This document shows, piece after piece, positions 10 through 11,086 of a stretch of 11,086 bases of DNA. The position numbers were made by a program, and so were the translations under genes. How positions within the stretch are numbered: position 1 is the first letter of the stretch; every line of letters starts with the position of its first letter. The stretch comes from a virus, in the UHGV virus genome UHGV-0145753; one strand, written 5' to 3'. The notes under the pieces were generated by a model. That model saw only the letters and a list, made by a program, of their open reading frames with translations. It was not told the DNA's origin and did no database searches.

Positions 10-43
10 GTCTCGTGGGCTCGGAGATGTGTATAAGAGACAG
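10..43 (+). other. Illumina Nextera read-2 transposase adapter (sequencing artefact, not biological)
   Basis: Positions 10-43 read GTCTCGTGGGCTCGGAGATGTGTATAAGAGACAG, which matches from memory the 34-nt Nextera read-2 adapter ending in the 19-bp Tn5 mosaic end. Positions 1-9 (tgcagcgta) are probably index or adapter-dimer derived; unverified. Confidence 0.88.
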
Positions 44-3000
44 CCTGTAGAACAGCCCGATTCGGCTCAGTCAATGGCGCGCTGCCGCATGCTGCTGGCG
101 CTCGGGGAGGGGGAGTTTGCTGGTGGCCTGGATGCGACCCGGATATTCCTGGACGGTACGCCGTTGGGAAACCCCGACGGAACGATGAATTTTGAAAATG
201 TGTCATGGGATTTCCGGCCTGGCACACAGACCCAGACACCAATACCGGGATTCCCTGCAGTCGAGAATGAAACTACGGTTGGGGTATCGCTGACAAAGGC
301 CACACCATGGACCCGCGCACTGAGTAACACCCAGATTGACGCGGTGCTGGTTCGTATTGGCATCCCTGGGTTACAGCAGCAGGAAAACGATGGGGATATT
401 GTCGGCACTACGGTTCAGTACCATATTGATCTGGCGGTGGACGGTGGCGCTTACTCGACAGTCATGACGAAAACCGTCACAGAGAAGCTCAGCTCGCTCT
501 ATGAACTAACCCACCGTATTAATCTTCCCAAAGCCAGCACTGGCTGGCAAATTCGAGTGGTGCGTGACACCGATGACAGCACCAGCCAGATGCTGCAGAA
601 CAAAACGCAGGTGCAAGCGATTACTGAAGTGATCGATGCTCGCCTGCGATATCCACACACAGCGCTGCTGTACGTGTCCTTTAACGCAAAGTCATTCAAC
701 AACATCCCTAAGATTTCCTGCATGCCGAAGGGGCGCATCATCCGAATCCCTTCGAACTATGATCCAATAGCGCGGACTTATAGCGGAACATGGGACGGGA
801 CGTTTAAATGGGGCTGGACGAATAACCCGGCGTGGATTTGGTTCGATGTTCTGACTGAGCCGCGCTTCGGCCTTGGGCGCCGCGTGACGCCAGAAATGCT
901 CGATAAGTGGGAGCTCTATCGCATCGCCCAGCGCTGCGACCAGAAGGTACCCGACGGGAAAGGCGGAAGCGGTACCGAGCCACGCTTCATGTTTGACGTT
1001 TACATCCAGTCCCAGGCTGATGCCTGGCAGGTGATTAAAGATATTGCCGCGGGCTTCAACGGAATGACTTTCTGGGGCAACAACATGTTCAATGTTGTCT
1101 CTGACATGCCGGCGGACACTACGAAGTTGCAGATCCTCACTCGCGCATCAGTGGTGGGTAAGCCGGTGTACTCGAGTGGCAGTGAGAAAAACCGATTCTC
1201 CAGCGCGCTGATTAACTTCAGCGATCCGGATAACCACTACCAGGACCGCACCACGGCAGTGATGTTTCCGGAACTGGTAAGGCAGTTCAAGTTTAAGCAG
1301 ACACAAATCACTGCGATCGGTTGTACGCGTGAGAGCGAGGCGCAGCGGCGTGGCGGGTGGGCGGGGTATTCCAACTCCCTTGACCGCATTATCACGCTTC
1401 AGACTGGACTTGATGGCTTTGTATTTGTGCCGGGCACCGTATTTGCGTTTGCAGATGAACGCCTGTCAGGGCGCGTTTACGGCGGGCGTATCACCGGGTA
1501 TAACGCTGGTCTTAAGGCCGTGACCATTGACCGGGGCACCAGTGCGGTGGCGGGCGATACGCTGATGATTCGCACCCAGGGCGGTACCGTTGAAAGCCGG
1601 GTGATACAGGCCGTAAATGGCACGCAGCTGATCCTGTCCACGCCGTTCACGGCGGCGCCATTACCTAATGCCGTATTCGTCATTGATGCTGGTCAGCTGC
1701 GCCTGCAGTATTTCCGGGTAACGAACCTAAAATTTGATGATGAGGAAAACACCTTCACCATTACCGGTGCGGAGTATAACGCGTCGAAATACGACGCCGT
1801 TGATAACAACGCTCGCCTCGATACTCCTCCGATAAGCCTGATTCCGACCGGGCTAGTTAACCAGCCGACCAACATCGTGGTATCGAGCTATGATGCGGTT
1901 CGCCAGGGGCAACGCGTGGCCACGCTAACCGCCTCGTGGGATGCGCCAATTGATAAAGACGGCAAACTGCAGTCGGACGTAATAGCGTACCGGGCACAGT
2001 GGAAGCGCGGAAATAACGAATGGGTAAACGTGCCTGAAACCGGGTTACGAAATATCGAAGTGCCTGGCATTTTCGAGGGCGATTACCTTGTGCGCGTCCG
2101 TGCGATTAACTCTGGGGGAGCGTCCAGCCTTTGGGCCACGTCTGCGTTGACCCATCTTACCGGCCGCACCGGTGAAGTGCCCAAACCTGTCGGACTAACA
2201 GCAACAGAGGATGTTGTATTTGGGATCAACATTACATGGGGTTTCCCCGCAGATACCGCCGACACCCTGAGCACGGAACTGCAATACAGCGCTTCAGTCG
2301 ATGGGGCAAATCCAATGCTTTTGGCGTCGGTGCCGTATCCTCAGAAACTCTATCAGCAGATGGGGCTGAAGGCAGGGCAGGAATTCTGGTACCGGGCACG
2401 GCTGGTTGACCGCATCGGGAATCAGAGCGACTGGACAGACTGGGTGCGCGGGCAGGCCAGCATCGATGTTTCCGATATCACCGATGCAATCCTGGAGGAC
2501 ATGAAAGGCTCCGATACGTTCAAAGATCTGATCGAGAACGCGGTGGACAGCAACGAAAAAATTGCTGGCATGGCTAACGATATCAAACAGGCTAACGACG
2601 AACTGGAGCAGCAAGCGAAAGATATCGCCAAAAATGCCCAGGACGTAGGGAAGGTTCAGACCAGCGTTAATGAGCTTTCCAGCACGGTCGGGAATGTTTC
2701 GTCTTCACTCAGTCAGCTTGAGCAGACCGTTGCGACGGCTGATACCGCCCTGGGCCAGCGAATCGACAACATCAGCGTTTCTATGGACGGCATGACGGGC
2801 GGGGTGAAGAACTCTGCAATTGCGATAATCCAGGCAAACCTCGCTCAGGTGGCCACGCGTAAAACCCTTTCTGCATCGGTCGCCGGCAACAGCGCGAATC
2901 TGGACCGTATTGATGAGGTGATTGTCAACGACAGGGAGGCAACGGCGCGCTCGCTGCTGAGCCTGCAGACGGACGTTAACGGCAACAAGGCATCCATCAA

Positions 3001-3571
3001 CAGCCTGAACCAGACGTTCTCCGATTACCAGCAGGCTATGGCCACGCAGGTAAACAGCATCACGGCGACGGTGAACGGGCATACCTCAGCCATCACAACC
3101 AACGCTCAGGCTATAGCGAACGTAAACGGCGACCTCAGCGCGATGTACAACATCAAAGTTGGTGTCTCCAGCAACGGGCAGTATTACGCCGCGGGGATGG
3201 GTATCGGCGTGGAGAATACGCCATCAGGCATGCAGTCACAGGTAATCTTCCTGGCAGACCGTTTCGCCGTGACTACTATGGTCGGCGGGACTGTAACACT
3301 GCCGTTCGTTATCCAGAATGGCCAGGCCATTATCAGGGATACAGTCATTGGCGACGGGACCATAAGCAATGCAAAAATTGGCAATTACATCCAGTCGAAC
3401 AATTATGTTGCCGGCTCTGTTGGCTGGAAACTGGATAAGTCCGGGACGTTTGAGAACTACGGTTCGACAGCTGGGGAGGGAGCCATGAAGCAGACCAACC
3501 AGACAATCAGCGTCAAGGATGGCAACAACGTTCTGAGAGTGCAGGTTGGCCGATTAACGGGGGTGTTCTGA
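44..3571 (+). CDS. J: Phage host specificity / tail tip protein J (lambda gpJ family), 5'-truncated at the contig edge
   Basis: Long ORF whose translation aligns by eye with lambda gpJ from near its N-terminus (e.g. RIPSNYDPIARTYSGTWDGTF versus lambda LQVPSNYNPQTRQYSGIWDGTF). The ATG at 29 lies inside the adapter, so genuine coding sequence starts at 44 in the same frame and a few N-terminal codons are missing. Stop TGA at 3569-3571. Confidence 0.9.
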   Translation, partial: PVEQPDSAQSMARCRMLLALGEGEFAGGLDATRIFLDGTPLGNPDGTMNFENVSWDFRPGTQTQTPIPGFPAVENETTVGVSLTKATPWTRALSNTQIDAVLVRIGIPGLQQQENDGDIVGTTVQYHIDLAVDGGAYSTVMTKTVTEKLSSLYELTHRINLPKASTGWQIRVVRDTDDSTSQMLQNKTQVQAITEVIDARLRYPHTALLYVSFNAKSFNNIPKISCMPKGRIIRIPSNYDPIARTYSGTWDGTFKWGWTNNPAWIWFDVLTEPRFGLGRRVTPEMLDKWELYRIAQRCDQKVPDGKGGSGTEPRFMFDVYIQSQADAWQVIKDIAAGFNGMTFWGNNMFNVVSDMPADTTKLQILTRASVVGKPVYSSGSEKNRFSSALINFSDPDNHYQDRTTAVMFPELVRQFKFKQTQITAIGCTRESEAQRRGGWAGYSNSLDRIITLQTGLDGFVFVPGTVFAFADERLSGRVYGGRITGYNAGLKAVTIDRGTSAVAGDTLMIRTQGGTVESRVIQAVNGTQLILSTPFTAAPLPNAVFVIDAGQLRLQYFRVTNLKFDDEENTFTITGAEYNASKYDAVDNNARLDTPPISLIPTGLVNQPTNIVVSSYDAVRQGQRVATLTASWDAPIDKDGKLQSDVIAYRAQWKRGNNEWVNVPETGLRNIEVPGIFEGDYLVRVRAINSGGASSLWATSALTHLTGRTGEVPKPVGLTATEDVVFGINITWGFPADTADTLSTELQYSASVDGANPMLLASVPYPQKLYQQMGLKAGQEFWYRARLVDRIGNQSDWTDWVRGQASIDVSDITDAILEDMKGSDTFKDLIENAVDSNEKIAGMANDIKQANDELEQQAKDIAKNAQDVGKVQTSVNELSSTVGNVSSSLSQLEQTVATADTALGQRIDNISVSMDGMTGGVKNSAIAIIQANLAQVATRKTLSASVAGNSANLDRIDEVIVNDREATARSLLSLQTDVNGNKASINSLNQTFSDYQQAMATQVNSITATVNGHTSAITTNAQAIANVNGDLSAMYNIKVGVSSNGQYYAAGMGIGVENTPSGMQSQVIFLADRFAVTTMVGGTVTLPFVIQNGQAIIRDTVIGDGTISNAKIGNYIQSNNYVAGSVGWKLDKSGTFENYGSTAGEGAMKQTNQTISVKDGNNVLRVQVGRLTGVF

Positions 3572-3572
3572 T

Positions 3573-3875
3573 ATGGCTTATGGAATACAGACCTGGGATG
3601 CTTCGGGAAACCCCAACAACTACGGAATCAAGCCCGTTTCCGTTGTTGGACGTATACAACTTGCCGCCGGACAAAACTCCGGCAGCTGGTCTTTCACTGT
3701 ACCCTCAGGAATGAAGGTCGGTTTTGCGCTCTCACTTGATGAAGGAGGTAACAGCGTAGGGAGGAGCATTGTCGCGTCAGGGAACACAATAACCGTAACC
3801 GCAGCCTCTTCTGTGGGCCTGGGTAATTACCCGGCCTCTAAATGTGAGGTGGTCGTTTTCATGGAGAAAGCATAA
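3573..3875 (+). CDS. Hypothetical phage protein (tail-region accessory), 100 aa
   Basis: ORF starts 2 nt after the J stop with a G-rich Shine-Dalgarno-like stretch upstream; its stop overlaps the next start (TAATG). Shares a WDASG motif with the next ORF. Confidence 0.6.
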   Translation: MAYGIQTWDASGNPNNYGIKPVSVVGRIQLAAGQNSGSWSFTVPSGMKVGFALSLDEGGNSVGRSIVASGNTITVTAASSVGLGNYPASKCEVVVFMEKA

Positions 3876-4549
3876 TGGCCGAATTTGGCGCGATGATATT
3901 AATGGATAACGGGAATCCCTTTGTAACGCCACAATCAACGCCTTTCTGTCTTTACGGGAAGTATACCTTCAATTCATCCGCGAATGGCAGTTCTCAGCAG
4001 GTTGCTCAAAATATCGCTTTAAACGCTGATTACCCAGTGATGGTTTTTATCAAAACCACCAATACAGCACAGCCCACTCCGGTTATGTCTTACAGGAACG
4101 GCGGTAATGTGTATGTTGCTGGTGTTAATCCCTACAACCAAAGTTTCACTTTAACGGCGTACGTTTTTGCCATATTCCCGCAGATATTACCGAAATGGGG
4201 TTTGGCAATATGGGATGCGAGCGGAAAGCTTGTGTTAACTAATGAGTCCCGTGTGCTATCAGACCTGCAGACGGTTGGCACGCCTGGTGCAAACGGCGGG
4301 ATAAATATTGACCAGACGCTGAGCGGGTCATGGGCCGTTGCACCTGCTCAGTTGGGTCAGACCATCATTGTGAATAATTCAACCCGGCCTCCGACTATCT
4401 ACACGATAAATGCTTATTCTTCATGCAGGTTTGACGGGGCCAATACGAGGATAAACGCAGGGGGGACCTCCACTGGGGCAGGTTCACCTGGAGGGGGAAC
4501 GAATACTGGCATTTCATTAACCGCCATAAATACAGCGGCCTATGATTGA
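3875..4549 (+). CDS. Hypothetical phage protein, 224 aa, apparently two copies of the domain seen in the preceding ORF plus a Gly/Thr/Asn-rich C-terminus
   Basis: Start is translationally coupled to the upstream stop (TAATG). Contains AIWDASGKLVL mid-protein and a second weaker DNGNP-type motif near the N-terminus, resembling QTWDASGNP in the 100-aa ORF. Confidence 0.62.
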   Translation: MAEFGAMILMDNGNPFVTPQSTPFCLYGKYTFNSSANGSSQQVAQNIALNADYPVMVFIKTTNTAQPTPVMSYRNGGNVYVAGVNPYNQSFTLTAYVFAIFPQILPKWGLAIWDASGKLVLTNESRVLSDLQTVGTPGANGGINIDQTLSGSWAVAPAQLGQTIIVNNSTRPPTIYTINAYSSCRFDGANTRINAGGTSTGAGSPGGGTNTGISLTAINTAAYD

Positions 4550-4571
4550 TTGATCGTTTTTAGCGATCAAT
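4548..4571. promoter_or_regulatory. AT-rich palindrome ATTGATCG-N7-CGATCAAT with clustered GATC sites; candidate operator or promoter region for the downstream lipoprotein moron
   Basis: Perfect 8-bp inverted repeat (4549-4556 and 4564-4571) immediately after the stop of the 224-aa ORF. A third TTGATC copy lies at 4582-4587, giving three GATC sites within about 35 bp. No T-tract follows, so it is not a typical terminator. Confidence 0.3.
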
Positions 4572-4660
4572 AACATAATATTGATCTATCCAATCAATTA
4601 TACCCACCAGAATTGTATTGTTATCGTCTAAGATACTGAATTCCTCTGGATACTATCAAA

Positions 4661-4894
4661 ATGAGAAAACTGATTATCTGCATGGCAGGCGCTGTCATGC
4701 TTACAGGATGCGCTGGCGTAATTGAGAAACAGGAACCAGTTTGCAGCGGCACTGCAATCGTTGGCGGTCAGGAAACTACGGTTCAGATTTACGGTGTGCG
4801 TAAACAAAACAACCAGACGCAGTACCGGGCTGGATATCCTTTCAGCTGGCGCTGGGTAAGTGCGAATACATTTACCGAAACAACCTGCAAATAA
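4661..4894 (+). CDS. Small secreted lipoprotein (77 aa); position and size consistent with a Cor-like superinfection-exclusion lipoprotein
   Basis: N-terminus MRKLIICMAGAVMLTGCAG has a hydrophobic signal sequence followed by an L-T-G-C lipobox. The gene sits between J and the side tail fibre with its own AT-rich upstream region and a downstream terminator (moron-like). The Cor assignment rests on context only. Confidence 0.65.
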   Translation: MRKLIICMAGAVMLTGCAGVIEKQEPVCSGTAIVGGQETTVQIYGVRKQNNQTQYRAGYPFSWRWVSANTFTETTCK

Positions 4895-4915
4895 CCCACT
4901 ACGCTTAAACATAAA

Positions 4916-4938
4916 CCTCGCTCCGGCGGGGTTTTTTT
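4916..4938 (+). terminator. Putative rho-independent terminator after the lipoprotein gene
   Basis: GC-rich imperfect hairpin (cctcgctccggcgggg) immediately followed by a run of seven T (4932-4938). Confidence 0.5.
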
Positions 4939-4954
4939 ATTGCCTGGAGAAAAT

Positions 4955-5896
4955 ATGCTTTATAACACCGGCACCATCGCCATTAATGGAAATACCGCCA
5001 CCGGGACGGGTACAAACTGGACGGCACCGGCCAGCCAGGTCCGCGCTGGCCAGACGATTATCGTGATGTCTAACCCGGTGCAGCTGTTTCAGATTTCATC
5101 CGTGAACAGCGCCACGTCAATGACGGTAACGCCTGCTGCATCACCGGCGCTGAGCGGCCAGAAGTACGGCATTCTGGTATCAGACAATATCTCGGTTGAT
5201 GGGCTGGCGCTGGCCATGTCGCAGCTTATCAAGGAGTATGACGAGAATATTGGTGCGTGGGAGACGTTCGCCACAACCTCAGCCAACCAGAACATTACCG
5301 TTACGATCAATGGCACCAGTTTATCAATCCCGGCTCTTGGGAAATTACTGCAGAAGGGGAGCAACGGAGCTTTGCCGGTTAATCAAGGTGGTACCGGCGC
5401 AACGAATGCCGCAGACGCTCGCACAAACCTTGGTTTGGGAGAAGGTTCGGTGTTACCCGTTGGTGTGCCTGTTCCGTGGCCTGCAGCCACTCCGCCAACA
5501 GGCTGGCTGAAATGCAATGGTGCGGCTTTTTCTGCTGAAGAATACCCAGAACTGGCAAAGGCTTACCCGACAAATAAATTGCCTGATTTACGTGGTGAGT
5601 TTATGCGTGGCTGGGATGATGGAAGAGGCGTTGATAGTGGCAGGGGGATTCTCACTGCGCAATCTCATGGTATGCCGTCTATTTCAGGAACGTTTAATGG
5701 TCTTTTTGCTGTTAAACAAACAAATGGTTTAGGTGGTGTTTCTGTAGCAAAAAGTACAAATACTGAAACTTTATCTACTTCATCTGGATCAGGTTCCGTG
5801 TTTGATTACACGTTTAATGTCAGCGGTTCGACTCCGGTATCACCAGAACTTCGTCCGCGTAATATTGCATTTAACTATATCGTGAGGGCCGCATAA
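4955..5896 (+). CDS. Side tail fiber protein: constant N-terminal part (to about 5430) fused to the currently expressed variable C-terminal part carrying a phage tail-collar-like domain
   Basis: GGAG Shine-Dalgarno 7 nt upstream of ATG 4955 (the ORF-track start at 4940 is a TTG). The N-terminus MLYNTGTIAINGNTATGTGTNW is fibre-like, and the C-terminal motifs (PTGWLKCNGAAFSAEEYPELAKAY, LPDLRGEFMRGWDDGRG) are typical of tail-collar domains. The left inversion site lies in-frame at 5418-5443. Confidence 0.85.
   Translation: MLYNTGTIAINGNTATGTGTNWTAPASQVRAGQTIIVMSNPVQLFQISSVNSATSMTVTPAASPALSGQKYGILVSDNISVDGLALAMSQLIKEYDENIGAWETFATTSANQNITVTINGTSLSIPALGKLLQKGSNGALPVNQGGTGATNAADARTNLGLGEGSVLPVGVPVPWPAATPPTGWLKCNGAAFSAEEYPELAKAYPTNKLPDLRGEFMRGWDDGRGVDSGRGILTAQSHGMPSISGTFNGLFAVKQTNGLGGVSVAKSTNTETLSTSSGSGSVFDYTFNVSGSTPVSPELRPRNIAFNYIVRAA
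5418..5443. repeat. Left recombination site of the invertible segment (gix/hix/pix-like), crossover dinucleotide TT at 5430-5431
   Basis: CTCGCACAAACC-TT-GGTTTGGGAGAA. Positions 5430-5444 are the exact reverse complement of 7254-7268. The half-site resembles the Hin/Gin-type consensus (TTCTC..AAACC) as I recall it. It is embedded in-frame in the tail-fibre gene (codons N-L-G-L-G-E). Confidence 0.7.
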
Positions 5897-6498
5897 TGAA
5901 TAATGCAGAATTAAATAGTGAATTGATTGCTACTGCGGCAGGGAATATTACCGTTTATAACTATGATTGTGAAACACGAGAATATATTTCCACATCAACT
6001 GAATATCTTGCTGTGGGTGTCGGTATCCCGGCATGTTCCTGTCTGGATACACCAGGTATACATAAGGCGGGTTATGCAATATGCCGCTCTGTGGATTTAA
6101 ATTCATGGGAATATGTGCCAGACCATCGAGGTGAAATTGTCTATAGCACCGAAACGGGAGATACCAAAGAAATCACAGTGCCAGGCGACTATCCCGAAAA
6201 TACAACCACTATCGCCCCGTTAACGCCATACGATAAATGGGATGGTGAGAAATGGGTGACCGATATTGAGGCACAGCATAGCGCCGCAGTAGACGCGGCA
6301 GAAGCGCATCGCCAATCGCGGATTGATGCTGCAATGGCTTCCATCAGTCTGATTCAGCTGAAATTGCAGGCCGGACGTAAACTGACGCAGGCAGAAACAA
6401 CCCGGCTTAACGCTGTGCTGGATTACATTGACGCGGTGGTGGCAACAGATACCAGCACCGCGCCGGATGTCATCTGGCCTGAACTACCGGAGGCGTAG
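5896..6498 (+). CDS. tfa: Tail fiber assembly protein (Tfa chaperone) for the currently expressed fibre variant
   Basis: Start overlaps the fibre stop (TAATG) with a GAGGG Shine-Dalgarno upstream. C-terminal motif LDYIDAVVATDTSTAPDVIWPELP is typical of the conserved Tfa C-terminus. Confidence 0.8.
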   Translation: MNNAELNSELIATAAGNITVYNYDCETREYISTSTEYLAVGVGIPACSCLDTPGIHKAGYAICRSVDLNSWEYVPDHRGEIVYSTETGDTKEITVPGDYPENTTTIAPLTPYDKWDGEKWVTDIEAQHSAAVDAAEAHRQSRIDAAMASISLIQLKLQAGRKLTQAETTRLNAVLDYIDAVVATDTSTAPDVIWPELPEA

Positions 6499-6913
6499 GC
6501 CATTCAATATCTGGAGCACTGGAAATATCGACCATTTCCAGTGCATCCAGATAATCCAGCCACAAATTATATTGTGCCAGTTCCTCACCTTTCAGACGAC
6601 CGATAGCTGCTTTACCAGGCCATTGCTTACCGTTCATGTATTCGTTGGCATGGTCAATTCTCGACTTTTTCTCTGAGTCAGCCGCAGCAAGTTGTTCTTT
6701 ATGCGTAGGTGACGGAAGATCTACCCAGCAAGGCAACCCATCATCACCAATGCCACGCATTTTACCCTCAGGAGCGTTTCCCATGAAAACCAGTGCATCT
6801 TCAGCATCTATATTGATGCCGTCTGACGGCCATGTGCCAGCAGTTAAATAATCATATTTCAGTGCCACAAGATAAAAAGCATTTTCCGTCGGGCTGAATA
6901 CATAGTCGACCAT
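6470..6913 (-). CDS. tfa: Alternative tail fiber assembly protein (Tfa-alt), in the silent orientation
   Basis: Conserved Tfa-type C-terminus (LWLDYLDALEMVDISSAPDIEWPTPP). Preferred start is the ATG at 6913, which overlaps the Sv-alt stop in a TAATG junction mirroring the + strand arrangement and has a GGGAG upstream; the ORF-track start at 6931 would add 6 aa. Its 3' end overlaps the + strand tfa convergently by 29 bp. Confidence 0.72.
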   Translation of the reverse strand: MVDYVFSPTENAFYLVALKYDYLTAGTWPSDGINIDAEDALVFMGNAPEGKMRGIGDDGLPCWVDLPSPTHKEQLAAADSEKKSRIDHANEYMNGKQWPGKAAIGRLKGEELAQYNLWLDYLDALEMVDISSAPDIEWPTPPVVQAR

Positions 6914-7268
6914 TAATATCCCACTCCCCATACTGCCACTGTTGAATTAGATTTCGTGTATGCGCAAGCGGCTTTGAATTTGACCCGGTCAACAATCGCT
7001 GCGCTAACAAAAGGGGCTCCATTAGTCGCGTAGATCACAGAATTGACCAGCGAAGGATTGATGGAAAGGCAAGCATTAGGAAAGGCAACCGGCCATGAGC
7101 CATCAACAACGACCATATTACCGTCGGTAGATTGCGGCACTGATAGCGTCTTCCACTGAAGCAATGCTGTTCGTTGTACTCCACCAATTAATACTGGAAT
7201 AGTGATGTTACCTGCACTGCTGGCTAATGCTGTCGCAGCAGGCATTTTCGCTGCTTCTCCCAAACCAA
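6913..7268 (-). CDS. Alternative tail-fibre variable C-terminal cassette (Sv-alt), promoterless and startless; it would be fused in-frame to the constant part after inversion
   Basis: The minus-strand reading frame is open from the right inversion site to a stop at 6913-6915. Across the site it encodes V-G-L-G-E, matching L-G-L-G-E at the left site in the same codon phase, so recombination at the central dinucleotide keeps the frame. The ORF-track start at 7287 is a TTG beyond the crossover. Confidence 0.62.
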
Positions 7269-7280
7269 CCTTTTTTATAA
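7255..7280. repeat. Right recombination site of the invertible segment (gix/hix/pix-like), crossover dinucleotide AA at 7267-7268
   Basis: TTCTCCCAAACC-AA-CCTTTTTTATAA. Its left half and centre are the exact reverse complement of the left site's right half and centre. It lies about 60 bp upstream of the invertase start. Confidence 0.7.
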
Positions 7281-7339
7281 CCATCAAAAATCTGGTGATG
7301 CTTCGCCGTTTCTCCTGTTTTCATAACAGGAGAAATCCC

Positions 7340-7888
7340 ATGATTTACGGTTATGCCCGAGTATCAACAAACCACCAGGACACTGAATTGCAACTAACGG
7401 CGCTCAAGTCAGCGGGTTGTGAGAAAATTTTTGAAGAGCATGCCAGCGGGAGGAAATCGAATCGGCCGGTTCTAAAACGGCTGATCGCCACTATGCAGCC
7501 GGGGGATGAACTGGTGGTCTGGAAGCTGGACAGGATAGGCCGCAACGTTCTGCATGCGCTGTTGATGTTCCAGCAGTTACAGGAAAAGGGTATCAACTTC
7601 CGCAGTATTACCGATGGCGTGGATCTCAAAACAGCCAGCGGCCGCTATAACTTTCGTAACATCCTTTCCGCAGCACAATATGAATCTGATCTTAATAGCG
7701 AACGTACCTTAGCAGGGCTGGCCGTAGCCAGGGCAAAAGGGCGAGTTGGTGGTCGCAGGCCTAAGTTCACGGATGAGCAATGGCGGGAAATGGGGGAGCG
7801 GATGGCAACCGGTGAATCACGACAAAGCGTATCAAAAACGTATGGAGTAGGGCTCTCAACTCTGTATAAAAAGTTTCCAGCTAGCTGA
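7340..7888 (+). CDS. Site-specific DNA invertase, serine recombinase of the Hin/Gin/Cin/Pin family
   Basis: AGGAGA Shine-Dalgarno 7 nt upstream of ATG 7340. N-terminus MIYGYARVSTNHQDTELQ has the catalytic Ser at position 9 (Gin: MLIGYVRVSTNDQNTDLQ) and the C-terminal helix-turn-helix ends GLSTLYKKFPAS (Gin: ALSTLYKKHPAK). About 182 aa; the upstream in-frame extension in the ORF track (from 7202) overlaps the inversion site and is not used. Confidence 0.93.
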   Translation: MIYGYARVSTNHQDTELQLTALKSAGCEKIFEEHASGRKSNRPVLKRLIATMQPGDELVVWKLDRIGRNVLHALLMFQQLQEKGINFRSITDGVDLKTASGRYNFRNILSAAQYESDLNSERTLAGLAVARAKGRVGGRRPKFTDEQWREMGERMATGESRQSVSKTYGVGLSTLYKKFPAS

Positions 7889-8136: not shown

Positions 8137-8164
8137 CATTGCGTGTAGCTTTGAGTGGGCAACT

Positions 8165-8207
8165 TTGTGTACACTTTTGTGTACCCAAAAACAAAAATGT
8201 GTACCCA
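8165..8207 (+). repeat. Three direct copies of a TGTGTAC(C) motif just upstream of the integrase start; candidate integrase arm-type or regulator binding sites
   Basis: TGTGTAC at 8166-8172 (within the palindrome GTGTACAC), 8178-8184 and 8198-8204. The last two are TGTGTACCCA 10-mers spaced 20 bp apart. A fourth TGTGTAC lies at 7922-7928 in the hairpin loop after the invertase. Confidence 0.45.
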
Positions 8208-8211
8208 TTCA

Positions 8212-9405
8212 ATGATCACCGACACAAAGCTCAGGAAGGCGCTCGGCAAGAAAAGAGATGATATCGAGATTATTTCTGATTCGCACGGGCTCAACGCCAG
8301 AATCAGCCAGGCCGGAAAAATATCATTTTTCTATCGGTATCGCTGGGCCGGTAAAGCGGTAAAACTCAATGTTGGTGATTATCCTGCAATGAGTATCACC
8401 CAGGCAAGAGAGCGTCGCCAACAATTCAGAAACTGGTTAACTGAGGGACTGGATCCGCGAGAGCAGGTGAAGCTGGATAAGCAGACCCGACAGGAAGCGA
8501 TGTCCGTTGCCGAAGCGTTCAATTACTGGATTGAAAGGCACTGTATCGCTAACGGGCTAGTTAAAGTCGATTACTATCGCCAGGTGTTTGAGAAACATAT
8601 CGCCGAACCGATGAAGAATGTCAAAGTCGATAACACAGCGAAAATGCACTGGATCAACGTCTTCGATTCTATAGAAAGCAGGGTGATGGCTCATTACATG
8701 CTTTCGCTGTGCAAACGGGCGTTTAGGTTCTGCGTTAACAGAAGTGTGATCGCCTCAAACCCACTCGAGGGATTACTGCCATCTGATGTCGGGCAAAAGC
8801 CTAAAAAGAGAACTCGCAGGATGGACGATGACGATCTGCGCAAAATCTATCAGTGGTTGAAAAGCCATATGTCGATAGAGTCCGTTTTCCTGGTGAAATT
8901 TATTATGCTTACCGGATGCCGTACGGCTGAGATTCGACTTAGTGAGAGATCATGGTTTCGATTGGATGATAATGAGTGGGTCGTGCCTGCGGGCAGTTAT
9001 AAAACTCGGGTACATATTAGAAGGGGGCTCTCAGACGCCGCCGTTAACTTGGTCAGAAATCACCTCAAGAAAATAAACACCAATCACCTGGTGACTTCAC
9101 AACGTAAAATTGATGGCGGGATCAAAGATTCGCCCGTTCATTCACCTGTGGCATCCAATTACGCCCGTTCTATTTGGAATGGAACAGGTATGGCAGAGTG
9201 GTCGCTTCATGATATGAGGCGGACGATAGCCACAAATCTCTCTGAGTTAGGTTGCCCGCCGCACGTAATTGAAAAGCTACTTGGTCATCAGATGGTCGGT
9301 GTAATGGCTCACTACAATCTGCACGACTACATCGATGACCAAAAACACTGGCTCCACGTTTGGCAGAGCCATCTTGAAAGTATCATTGGTGAGCCATTCA
9401 GTTAA
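8212..9405 (+). CDS. int: Tyrosine site-specific integrase, P4-type (N-terminal arm-binding domain plus C-terminal catalytic domain)
   Basis: N-terminus [17 protein letters not shown]...[23 protein letters not shown]...[18 protein letters not shown] fits the P4-integrase arm-binding pattern. The C-terminus has the catalytic signature ([19 protein letters not shown]...AHY). Start chosen at ATG 8212; the ORF track begins at an upstream GTG (8155) that would put the repeats inside the coding sequence. No strong Shine-Dalgarno at either. Confidence 0.9.
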
Positions 9406-9598
9406 TTGGCTGTTTCACACCTTCCCACTCTTTGACTGACTCCGACTTCCAGCGGTTTGGGTTACCAGGAAAATCAGGAGCAGGGAACGGCTTCGCAAAA
9501 CCCCGCGGCATAGTTTCTGTGCTTTGCCATGACCAAAGGGTTTTACGTGAGATTTTGTATCGACTGGTCAGGTCTGACGTCAGCAAAATATCATCCAT
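9398..9598 (-). CDS. AlpA/Xis-like small helix-turn-helix protein (putative excisionase or recombination directionality factor, or transcriptional regulator)
   Basis: 66 aa with GGAG Shine-Dalgarno 9 nt upstream. The pattern ...[11 protein letters not shown]...FPAP..........W....VKEW resembles AlpA (..RATIYDWL..ATFPKK......W.EAEIDEWL). It is convergent with int and overlaps its 3' end by 8 bp. Confidence 0.55.
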
Positions 9599-9609
9599 CG
9601 TTTTTCTCC

Positions 9610-9630
9610 AATGGCCCGTACTGGGCCATT
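9610..9630. promoter_or_regulatory. Perfect palindrome AATGGCCC-N5-GGGCCATT just upstream of the AlpA-like gene; candidate operator or mRNA hairpin
   Basis: 8-bp arms with a 5-nt spacer in the 45-bp gap between the hypothetical gene ending at 9644 and the AlpA-like start at 9598. It is not followed by a U-run on the coding (minus) strand. Confidence 0.35.
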
Positions 9631-9643
9631 TATAAAAGTAATA

Positions 9644-9886
9644 TCAACTCACCTGACCCGGCAGCGCTCGCAATCTGCGCATGCCTGTCATCGCCGTGGC
9701 CACGTAACTCGCCTTGCGGTTCACTACCTCCACCCAGACCTTCACACCTTCAACTCTCACCGTGTACGTTTCCTTCATCTTGCTGCGTCCGTAGTCGCCG
9801 TAGCGTTCGTGATGAGTGGCCAGCGCGATGTCGCATGCCTGACGCGCTATCGGGGATTGCTGATTGCCGCGGTTAATCAGTTTCAT
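9644..9886 (-). CDS. Hypothetical protein, 80 aa
   Basis: The ATG at 9886 overlaps the stop of the upstream gene (ATGA), indicating translational coupling within a minus-strand operon. No recognisable motifs. Confidence 0.45.
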   Translation of the reverse strand: MKLINRGNQQSPIARQACDIALATHHERYGDYGRSKMKETYTVRVEGVKVWVEVVNRKASYVATAMTGMRRLRALPGQVS

Positions 9887-10077
9887 GCTTCACCGCCATC
9901 TGGGTTGGATGATTGACGGAAAATTGCTCGGGACGGCGACCAATCGCAATATGTATCAGTTTCGGTATGCCCGAAAATTGTCTTACAGCGGCGGATATGG
10001 GCGCAGTCGCCGCAAGTCTTACCCTTCGGGAGTTTCATTTTGTCGGGGTCTGCCGGGTTATAATTCAGCTCAGTCAT
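9883..10077 (-). CDS. Hypothetical small Cys-containing protein, 65 aa (possible zinc-binding)
   Basis: Preferred start is the ATG at 10077, with GGAGG 8 nt upstream, overlapping the stop of the upstream gene (ATGACTGA); the ORF track extends it to 10221 in a region that overlaps that gene. Contains C-x2-C-x5-C-x12-C (CGDCAHIRRC...YC). Confidence 0.45.
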   Translation of the reverse strand: MTELNYNPADPDKMKLPKGKTCGDCAHIRRCKTIFGHTETDTYCDWSPSRAIFRQSSNPDGGEA

Positions 10078-10414
10078 TCCAGGCCTCCAGCTCGTTCTGA
10101 ATTTCCTCGTCGATCTCGTCATTGGTGGCATCATGATTGAGATATGTGAGAGCTTCTTTCCGATACTGTGCGCGGCGTTCGCTGTACCATGCTGAAAACT
10201 CAGGTGACCAGCCTCGACCATTACCCTGAAAATCTACAAGAGCGTTGTCCTCTGCCATGCGCTCAACCATGCAGTCGGCAGTTGTCAGGGCGCACTCACG
10301 GATATACCGGCGTAGATCCCGCTTGCGCCAGTACGGGCTATATTTCGAGTCGCAACGACCTTTAAATTCGACGGCCCAGCGACGGATGCAACGTGCATTT
10401 AATGATTTGCTCAT
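10070..10414 (-). CDS. Hypothetical protein, 114 aa, with an acidic C-terminus
   Basis: ORF in the same minus-strand operon, with its stop overlapping the next start. A GC-rich hairpin lies just upstream of its start. No recognisable family. Confidence 0.5.
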   Translation of the reverse strand: MSKSLNARCIRRWAVEFKGRCDSKYSPYWRKRDLRRYIRECALTTADCMVERMAEDNALVDFQGNGRGWSPEFSAWYSERRAQYRKEALTYLNHDATNDEIDEEIQNELEAWND

Positions 10415-10421
10415 CTCGTTA

Positions 10422-10443
10422 CCGGGAGGGCGAACCCTCCCGC
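10422..10443. promoter_or_regulatory. GC-rich hairpin CGGGAGGG-cgaa-CCCTCCCG in a 34-bp intergenic gap
   Basis: Perfect 8-bp stem with a 4-nt loop between the partial upstream ORF (stop 10449-10451) and the start at 10414. No U-run on either strand, so it is not a classical terminator. Confidence 0.35.
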
Positions 10444-10448
10444 CTCCC

Positions 10449-11086
10449 TCAGCCCACGTATTCCGGTTTCATATCTGCCAGGGTAATGCTGAACTTATCG
10501 TGCAGCTCGTCGCCCAGATGACGTTTCGCCGTTGCCAGAACTCGCTCAACTTCCCCGAAACGCGCTGCTGCATCCGGTTCGTCCGGAGACGGTAGGGAGT
10601 TGATCGCGGCCTCAACCTTGTTACGTGAATCAACCAGGTAATAGCGTTTTACTGCTTTGTTCTTCAGTTCGGTGAACAGGGCTGAACCCAGTGTGGCCTT
10701 CGCACTTTCGATATCAGCGCGTAGTGCTTTGGCGCTATCAACATCCTGTGCGGCATCGATGCGTTCGCGGAAACCATCTGCCAGTGAGTCGATGTTTCCT
10801 GATTTTTCCTGCTTGCTCTGCGTGGTTGTTATGGTGTCACCTGAAATTTCAGACAGGCTAACGTGTTGCGCCGGAGCAGGGTTAACTTCTCGCTCTTCAC
10901 GGCGATCATCCAGTTCATCAGGGGTATACACGCCGAGAATTACATCCGGGCAGAACAGTCTCGCCCAACGTTTCACGGCGAGATAAGCGAGCTGCTGGCG
11001 AGGGTCGTCAGCCCAAAGCGTTGAATTACGAGTCCTGGCCTGTGCCAGTAGCAGGTCAAGTTCCCTCGGTTGATCTTCACCTTTCA
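10449..11086 (-). CDS. Hypothetical protein, 5'-partial (reading frame open to the window end)
   Basis: The minus-strand frame has no stop from 11086 down to the stop at 10449-10451. The ORF-track start at 10976 is a GTG and the frame continues upstream (...LWADDPRQQLAYLA), so the gene begins beyond the window. Charged, Ala-rich, helical-looking sequence; function not recognised. Confidence 0.5.
   Translation of the reverse strand, partial: KGEDQPRELDLLLAQARTRNSTLWADDPRQQLAYLAVKRWARLFCPDVILGVYTPDELDDRREEREVNPAPAQHVSLSEISGDTITTTQSKQEKSGNIDSLADGFRERIDAAQDVDSAKALRADIESAKATLGSALFTELKNKAVKRYYLVDSRNKVEAAINSLPSPDEPDAAARFGEVERVLATAKRHLGDELHDKFSITLADMKPEYVG

Follow-up and report, generated by a model that had tools for sequence, protein, structure and literature searches.

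The window, an 11,086-nucleotide stretch of the viral genome UHGV-0145753, covers the end of a lambdoid late operon, in which the tail-tip gene J is followed by two small genes, here called A and B, the lipoprotein gene cor, a terminator-like hairpin and the side tail-fibre region (Table 1). The J product matches NF049904 with an E value of 1.6e-129, yet scores under the curated cut-off of that model, and contains FNIII-A, Phage-tail_3 and, at amino acids 1021-1157, C-terminal Phage_Tail_Tip domains. The three genes are tightly packed: A begins a single base after the stop codon of J (TGA, 3569-3571; junction TGAtATG), while the stop codon of A (TAA, 3873-3875) shares a base with the start codon of B (ATG, 3875-3877; junction TAATG), which is preceded by a GGAG 8 nt upstream, so that A is translationally coupled to J, and B to A. 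Reading frames, coupling and context are all as given in an earlier, sequence-only reading of this DNA, and the "lipoprotein moron" it placed downstream of B is Cor (NF047972, E = 9e-42; LTGC lipobox), the gene for which has an annotated promoter and terminator in phi80. Within the intergenic region between B and cor (4549-4660), a perfect 7-bp inverted repeat (TTGATCG-N7-CGATCAA) directly follows the B stop codon, and a stretch of about 45 nt, located upstream of the position of the cor promoter annotated in phi80, contains three GATC sites; these may serve the moron as a regulatory element or one that is sensitive to Dam.

Table 1. Features of the A/B locus and its surroundings (window coordinates)
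Feature	Position	Strand	Description
J	29..3571	+	Tail-tip / central fibre protein, 1180 aa; NF049904 lambda_TipJ, PF24801, PF13550, PF09327
A	3573..3875	+	100 aa; phi80 gp22 / HK022 p24 family, PHROG 557
Motif copy 1	3582..3614	+	A residues 4-14, GIQTWDASGNP
B	3875..4549	+	224 aa; phi80 gp23 / HK022 p25 family, PHROG 425; candidate FhuA-binding receptor-binding protein
Motif copy 2 (weak)	3887..3919	+	B residues 5-15, GAMILMDNGNP
Motif copy 3	4196..4240	+	B residues 108-122, WGLAIWDASGKLVLT; between the two sandwich units of B
Hypervariable patch of B	4325..4489	+	Residues 151-205, including Gly/Thr-rich stretch
cor	4661..4894	+	FhuA-directed superinfection-exclusion lipoprotein, cognate partner of the cassette; NF047972, PHROG 1119
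Terminator-like hairpin	4913..4934	+	3' of cor; 9-bp stem, then T run
stf	4940-5896		Side tail-fibre gene
Inverted repeat, 20 nt	5425-5444 and 7254-7273		AAACCTTGGTTTGGGAGAAG
Tail-fibre assembly gene	5896-6498	+	Convergent with the next
Tail-fibre assembly gene	6470-6931	-	Convergent with the preceding
Alternative fibre C terminus	6913-7287	-	
Serine invertase	7340-7888		Resolvase + HTH_7
Tyrosine integrase	8155-9405	+	
Small ORF	9398-9598	opposite to integrase	Excisionase or AlpA-type regulator by eye

Both proteins could be assigned over their full length to known PHROG families, A to PHROG 557 (E = 3.1e-36; residues 1-99 on positions 1-100 of the 100-position profile) and B to PHROG 425 (E = 2e-80; residues 1-224 on positions 1-224), and the same two families were matched by all 63 aligned homologues of A and all 66 homologues of B, respectively. 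Searches of Pfam, NCBIfam and PDB sequences yielded nothing meaningful for either protein, with no Pfam family at E ≤ 0.1. At the DNA level, positions 3400-4950 are 99.7% identical to mEp237, 99.6% to HK225, 99.2% to HK140 and 88% to phi80, and the DNA of the locus is present in 49 of 5,426 complete E. coli genomes. The sequence-only reading had mentioned two unassigned genes at this position in phi80/N15-like phages, which is borne out for phi80, since its gp22 (100 aa) and gp23 (224 aa) are annotated immediately 5' of cor; in HK022-type phages, too, the pair (there with a B of 212 aa) occurs together with cor. The phi80 proteins, which are 94% (A) and 92% (B) identical to those studied here, agree with them in length and in position between J and cor. 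With essentially no difference between the pair in the window, phi80 gp22/gp23, HK022 p24/p25 and PHROG 557/425, A and B constitute a known gene pair, carried by a phage type that had been sequenced before.

Homologues of B occur in 350 phage records, among them T1-like Drexlerviridae, Dhillonvirus, Klebsiella Webervirus, and Erwinia and Pantoea phages. In every case inspected (HK022-type, Webervirus, Erwinia, Pantoea and other phages), the order J-A-B was kept, with or without cor; among related viral contigs, A was found in 80 of 80 and cor in 79 of 80, and the pair lacks cor in Klebsiella Webervirus and in Pantoea AAS23. Two database entries from relatives, both outside the window, show fusions, one of the C terminus of J to A (P0255) and one of residues 1-55 of A to the N terminus of a tail fibre (P0283); both probably reflect frameshifts or deletions in the assemblies concerned.

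The names under which A and B are filed in databases, namely those of outer-membrane or membrane-associated proteins, appear to be propagated errors. Signal peptide, lipobox, hydrophobic or transmembrane segments and amphipathic barrel signals are lacking from both proteins, neither N terminus is hydrophobic, and hydropathy over 19 residues peaks at 1.14 in A and 1.18 in B versus 2.02 in Cor, which does have its LTGC. By membrane-affinity modelling, Matusiak et al. also arrived at non-membrane proteins (PMC12309495). A misannotation of the same kind is seen for the LptD-binding receptor-binding protein (RBP) Rtp44, labelled "membrane protein", the family of which (phrog_1265) is listed under "moron / host takeover".

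From a recurring motif in A and in both halves of B, it had been proposed that one small domain is present three times. Between single sequences, the similarity is barely beyond chance (BLASTP of A versus B, 6 of 10 identities over 10 residues, E = 0.028), and BLASTP found none between the two halves of B. At the family level, however, the motif stands up and is conserved: the A family shows no variation at G4 and W8 and hardly any at D9 and G12, and these positions coincide with the invariant or near-invariant G109, W113, D114 and G117 of B, where the motif (109-119) reads GLAIWDASGKL. The weak N-terminal copy in B is in register with A through its G-x7-G-N-P spacing. To deepen the A family, its profile was run against 1.84 billion representative proteins, and divergent phage homologues were added for both A and B. 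The profile run gave 68 matches, for the most part A-like, either proteins or fragments of about 100 aa, and none was B-like; the few matches to giant repetitive proteins were regarded as unrelated. While the comparison of A and B profiles built from shallow alignments (Neff, 1.8 to 3.3) was not significant, significance was reached once, and only once, the distant family members had been added, with A 2-42 aligning to B 107-156, in the C-terminal half (Prob, 83-85%; P = 7e-6 to 8e-6) at a score of 38.4, versus 12.8 ± 2.2 in 100 column shuffles. Against B 108-224 (P = 6e-6), the similarity was limited to the first 40 or so columns, and the link of A to the start of this half of B extends over the motif plus about 30 residues. 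With the motif removed, A 17-100 matched B 18-107 (score, 20.9 versus 9.9 ± 2.0; z = 5.5; 0 of 60 shuffles), and the profile comparisons of the A body with B 122-224 and of the N-terminal with the C-terminal half of B were not significant (z = 0.9, 1.6 and 0.5), all z values being somewhat generous because column shuffling destroys beta-strand periodicity.

Independent support came from phrog_2427, which matches A 1-82 as well as B 109-168, in both cases in one and the same register of the profile. The A family profile was itself matched by 5 of the 66 B-family members (best E = 1.4e-4), and HMM-versus-sequence searches of A against B sequences returned weak motif matches only. In sequence-only alignments, predicted strands were in register for 37 of 43 A strand residues in the N-terminal half of B (about 26 expected by chance) and for 38 of 50 in the C-terminal half (about 28 expected). 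In summary, A and B seem to be built from a repeated small module, and the papers cited here on this cassette make no mention of a paralogy between them. The proposed triplication is partly supported: sequence comparison connects A with the start of the C-terminal half of B and with the N-terminal half of B, and the structure models contain beta-sandwich units with the motif preceding each, but the two halves of B are not connected directly, their sequences showing no significant similarity.

AlphaFold2 models were run with the family alignments. In that of A (pLDDT, 82.5), seven strands form a beta sandwich, preceded by an N-terminal hairpin of low confidence, and that of B (pLDDT, 89.7; pTM, 0.86) has two strand-rich units, at residues of about 25-100 and 110-220. 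The first 20 or so residues are modelled with low confidence in both proteins, and pLDDT is about 50 at the weak motif copy in the B monomer model. For the Gly/Thr/Asn-rich end of B, a resemblance to fibre or adhesin tips had been noted, which the model does not support: from residue 191 on, block pLDDT means of 87 to 97 predict ordered strands of the C-terminal sandwich, and the stretch overlaps the hypervariable patch. The models of A and B have their top lectin-fold matches in common. H-type lectins, such as SLL-2 (3wmp), Helix pomatia agglutinin (2ccv) and discoidin I (2w94), are trimeric; the cassette proteins differ from them in lacking a Pfam H_lectin match, and the known target here is a protein receptor, not a sugar. 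A Foldseek search with A against viral predicted structures gave weak matches only (best E = 8.6e-4), including a small Littlefixvirus protein (E = 0.01) and none that was clearly B-like.

Conservation is distributed unevenly, both between the two proteins and within B. Mean column identity is 79% for A versus 62% for B, and the stronger conservation of A fits a structural partner; within B, residues 1-27, 96-150 and 206-224 form conserved blocks, and the sandwich bodies are variable. Compared with the HK022-type phages, the window carries another version of residues 151-205 of B (47% identity and a 12-aa indel, versus 89-100% identity over residues 1-150). At the DNA level, a mosaic breakpoint is visible in gene B in the comparison with HK106, similarity to HK022-type phages stopping near 4335, and Cor is only 79% identical in the same comparison, suggestive of a joint exchange of cor and the variable part of B. 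HK97-like, LamB-using phages were at one point suspected to be the ones with the different B tail; the matching phages are of the HK022 type, and cor is present in them.

Over two domains, the B model shares its three-dimensional fold with the LptD-type RBP of small siphophages (PDB 9RPT), and 3wmp is the best lectin match of both. At the LptD-type locus, RBP-receptor binding and exclusion by a lipoprotein have been shown by cryo-EM (PMC12685063), and the RBP of Oekolampad/Rtp (9RPT chain C) resembles the cassette described here in that it adjoins gpJ and is paired with a small exclusion lipoprotein, Rtp45. Rtp44, which matches 9rpt_C with an E value of 8.5e-44, belongs to phrog_1265, a family matched weakly by 3 of the 66 B-family members (best E = 2.8e-5); the match of an Erwinia homologue of B is in the same register as the hhalign alignment, and B of the window itself matches neither phrog_1265 nor any PDB sequence. 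Comparison of the B family with the LptD RBP family by hhalign was marginal (P = 0.03 to 0.06), as was a module-by-module comparison of A and B with the LptD RBP (best for A versus module 1, z = 3.6). B is, in other words, a fold relative of a proven RBP, outside its sequence family.

Additional similarities concern the ends of the proteins, with a gap-free alignment between the N-terminal strings of Rtp44 (MAQGIYIDLNDGRKP) and A (MAYGIQTWDASGNPN) and with the C-terminal endings ...MY and ...AYD, as well as the alignment of B to the last two thirds of Rtp44. The LptD RBP differs in being a single chain of 311-327 aa, compared to 100 + 224 (324) aa here, in its receptor (LptD), and in the absence of a separate A homologue; in Rtp, moreover, the rtp44 gene lies on the opposite strand (8753-9688, -). 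Since N-terminal strings, total length and the alignment of B to Rtp44 agree, the pair may be a split three-module RBP. The FhuA-type pair (split as 1+2) and the LptD-type RBP (fused, three in one) might then be versions of one ancestral protein, each of its modules consisting of a G-x-x-x-[WL]-x-x-x-G hairpin and an H-lectin-like sandwich of about 90 aa, a common origin that we offer tentatively and consider doubtful. By eye, Rtp44 has three hairpin-like strings (residues 3-18, 114-130 and 207-223); an internal-repeat test on this protein was not significant. RBP families specific for FhuA, BtuB, LptD and YncD have been called unrelated (bioRxiv 10.64898/2026.04.02.716166); if the three-module reading is true, small-siphophage RBP families would share ancestry and the conserved hairpins would be connectors, docking the modules together and onto the J tip. 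Should the module idea and the link by fold to the LptD RBP both prove true, there would be one RBP superfamily comparable across small siphophages, which would aid receptor prediction from genomes. As it stands, the repeated-module architecture and this fold link are modest additions to a known locus.

In T1-like, Dhillonvirus and lambdoid phages, J-A-B(-cor) has been described as the receptor-binding locus specific for FhuA (PMC8594841, PMC13164509, bioRxiv 10.64898/2026.04.02.716166), and its order (J, small protein, protein of about 220 aa, cor) is present in the window. In 2021, Maffei et al. related receptor specificity, including that for FhuA, to the allelic variant of the locus downstream of gpJ (PMC8594841), and a 2026 preprint, which also provides an AF3 model of FhuA with the RBP, confirmed the receptor-specificity locus over 101 siphoviruses (bioRxiv 10.64898/2026.04.02.716166). 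FhuA dependence is known for phi80, T1, HK022 and cassette-bearing BASEL phages (PMC13164509, PMC10373560), and of the BASEL phages with both proteins and Cor, 10 out of 10 use FhuA (PMC13164509); for mEp237, HK225 and HK140, no receptor data were found in the literature. In their models of the Dhillonvirus proteins, Matusiak et al. (2025) described an "Ig-like" small protein, which they likened to the C-terminal Ig-like receptor-binding domain of lambda gpJ, and a "hand-like" 23-kDa protein, the B homologue of JLBYU60, which AF2-multimer favored at the J tip as well as on FhuA (PMC12309495). The authors of the KanT1 paper obtained no Foldseek or HHpred matches and guessed at a role in exclusion (PMC13164509). 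The distal J tip is unresolved in the T1 cryo-EM map (PMC11945409), and published FhuA complexes of cassette proteins are in silico only (PMC12309495; bioRxiv 10.64898/2026.04.02.716166). [quoted passage not shown]

Taken together, we find it fairly likely that A and B are late tail-tip components, with B the FhuA-binding RBP, A an accessory protein and Cor the factor that blocks FhuA. Both would be made with J from one transcript via coupled translation, and we infer that they become part of the virion, the two-sandwich B attaching by non-covalent contacts to the J trimer at its distal end. Docking of B would involve its conserved N-terminal hairpin, inter-domain region and C terminus, the three conserved blocks thereby forming a base, while the variable sandwich bodies would be turned towards the receptor and the more variable surface loops, including residues 151-205, would touch FhuA, an outer-membrane transporter. 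A, as a single hairpin-plus-sandwich module, may be an accessory or adaptor subunit of the tip complex, its role being the least constrained part of this reading. Cor, expressed from its own promoter just downstream, would then block FhuA in the lysogen or infected cell. The same logic is found in phage T5, where a trimeric central fibre bears the monomeric FhuA-binding RBP pb5 at its tip and the lipoprotein Llp blocks FhuA periplasmically (PMC9586334). A tail-tip or receptor role was also what the sequence-only reading had guessed from the position after J; with the pair directly following J in every relative examined and with the literature tying the cassette to FhuA specificity, that guess is probably right; of the rest of its interpretation, the triplication is partly supported and the fibre-like tail unsupported.

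[quoted passage not shown] We judge this unlikely, given that B has the fold of a solved RBP that binds its receptor directly and that no similarity to Caudo_TAP or other chaperone families was detected. In addition, a band of about 21 kDa in Littlefixvirus virions fits the B homologue, tentatively and by size only (PMC12309495).

Quite unlikely, in our view, is a reversal or sharing of roles, in which A, possibly as a trimer like the H-type lectins, would contact FhuA and B would be the adaptor between J and A. One group of BtuB-using phages has B and Cor without A (PMC13164509), meaning that A could be the FhuA-specific part, but it is A that is the more conserved protein and B that is more variable and contains the mosaic hypervariable patch. 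The two-domain resemblance to the solved RBP likewise belongs to B, not A, and in AF2-multimer predictions with FhuA, A scored poorest and B best (PMC12309495). We consider it very improbable that A and B act at the membrane together with Cor, bringing about superinfection exclusion or lysogenic conversion, a reading suggested by their PHROG names and categories, their adjacency to cor and the superinfection-exclusion role proposed previously (PMC13164509): apart from the missing membrane signals and the RBP-like fold of B, the pair shares the late operon with J, to which it is translationally coupled, whereas cor is equipped with a promoter and terminator of its own, and Webervirus and AAS23 have the pair without cor. 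How T1 and phi80 recognize FhuA in a TonB-dependent manner is a classic question, for which the locus supplies phage-side candidates, B first and A as its partner, and both are small soluble proteins that could be purified for direct testing.

Downstream of cor and its hairpin, the window contains an invertible tail-fibre switch of the Mu G / P1 C type (4940-7888; Table 1). It is followed by the integrase gene and by the small ORF on the opposite strand, which had no Pfam match, and then by leftward early-region ORFs, including a RecT-like fragment (8155-10976); no tRNA gene is present in this region. The tail genes thus directly adjoin the integration/recombination region, as they do in a vegetative phage map.
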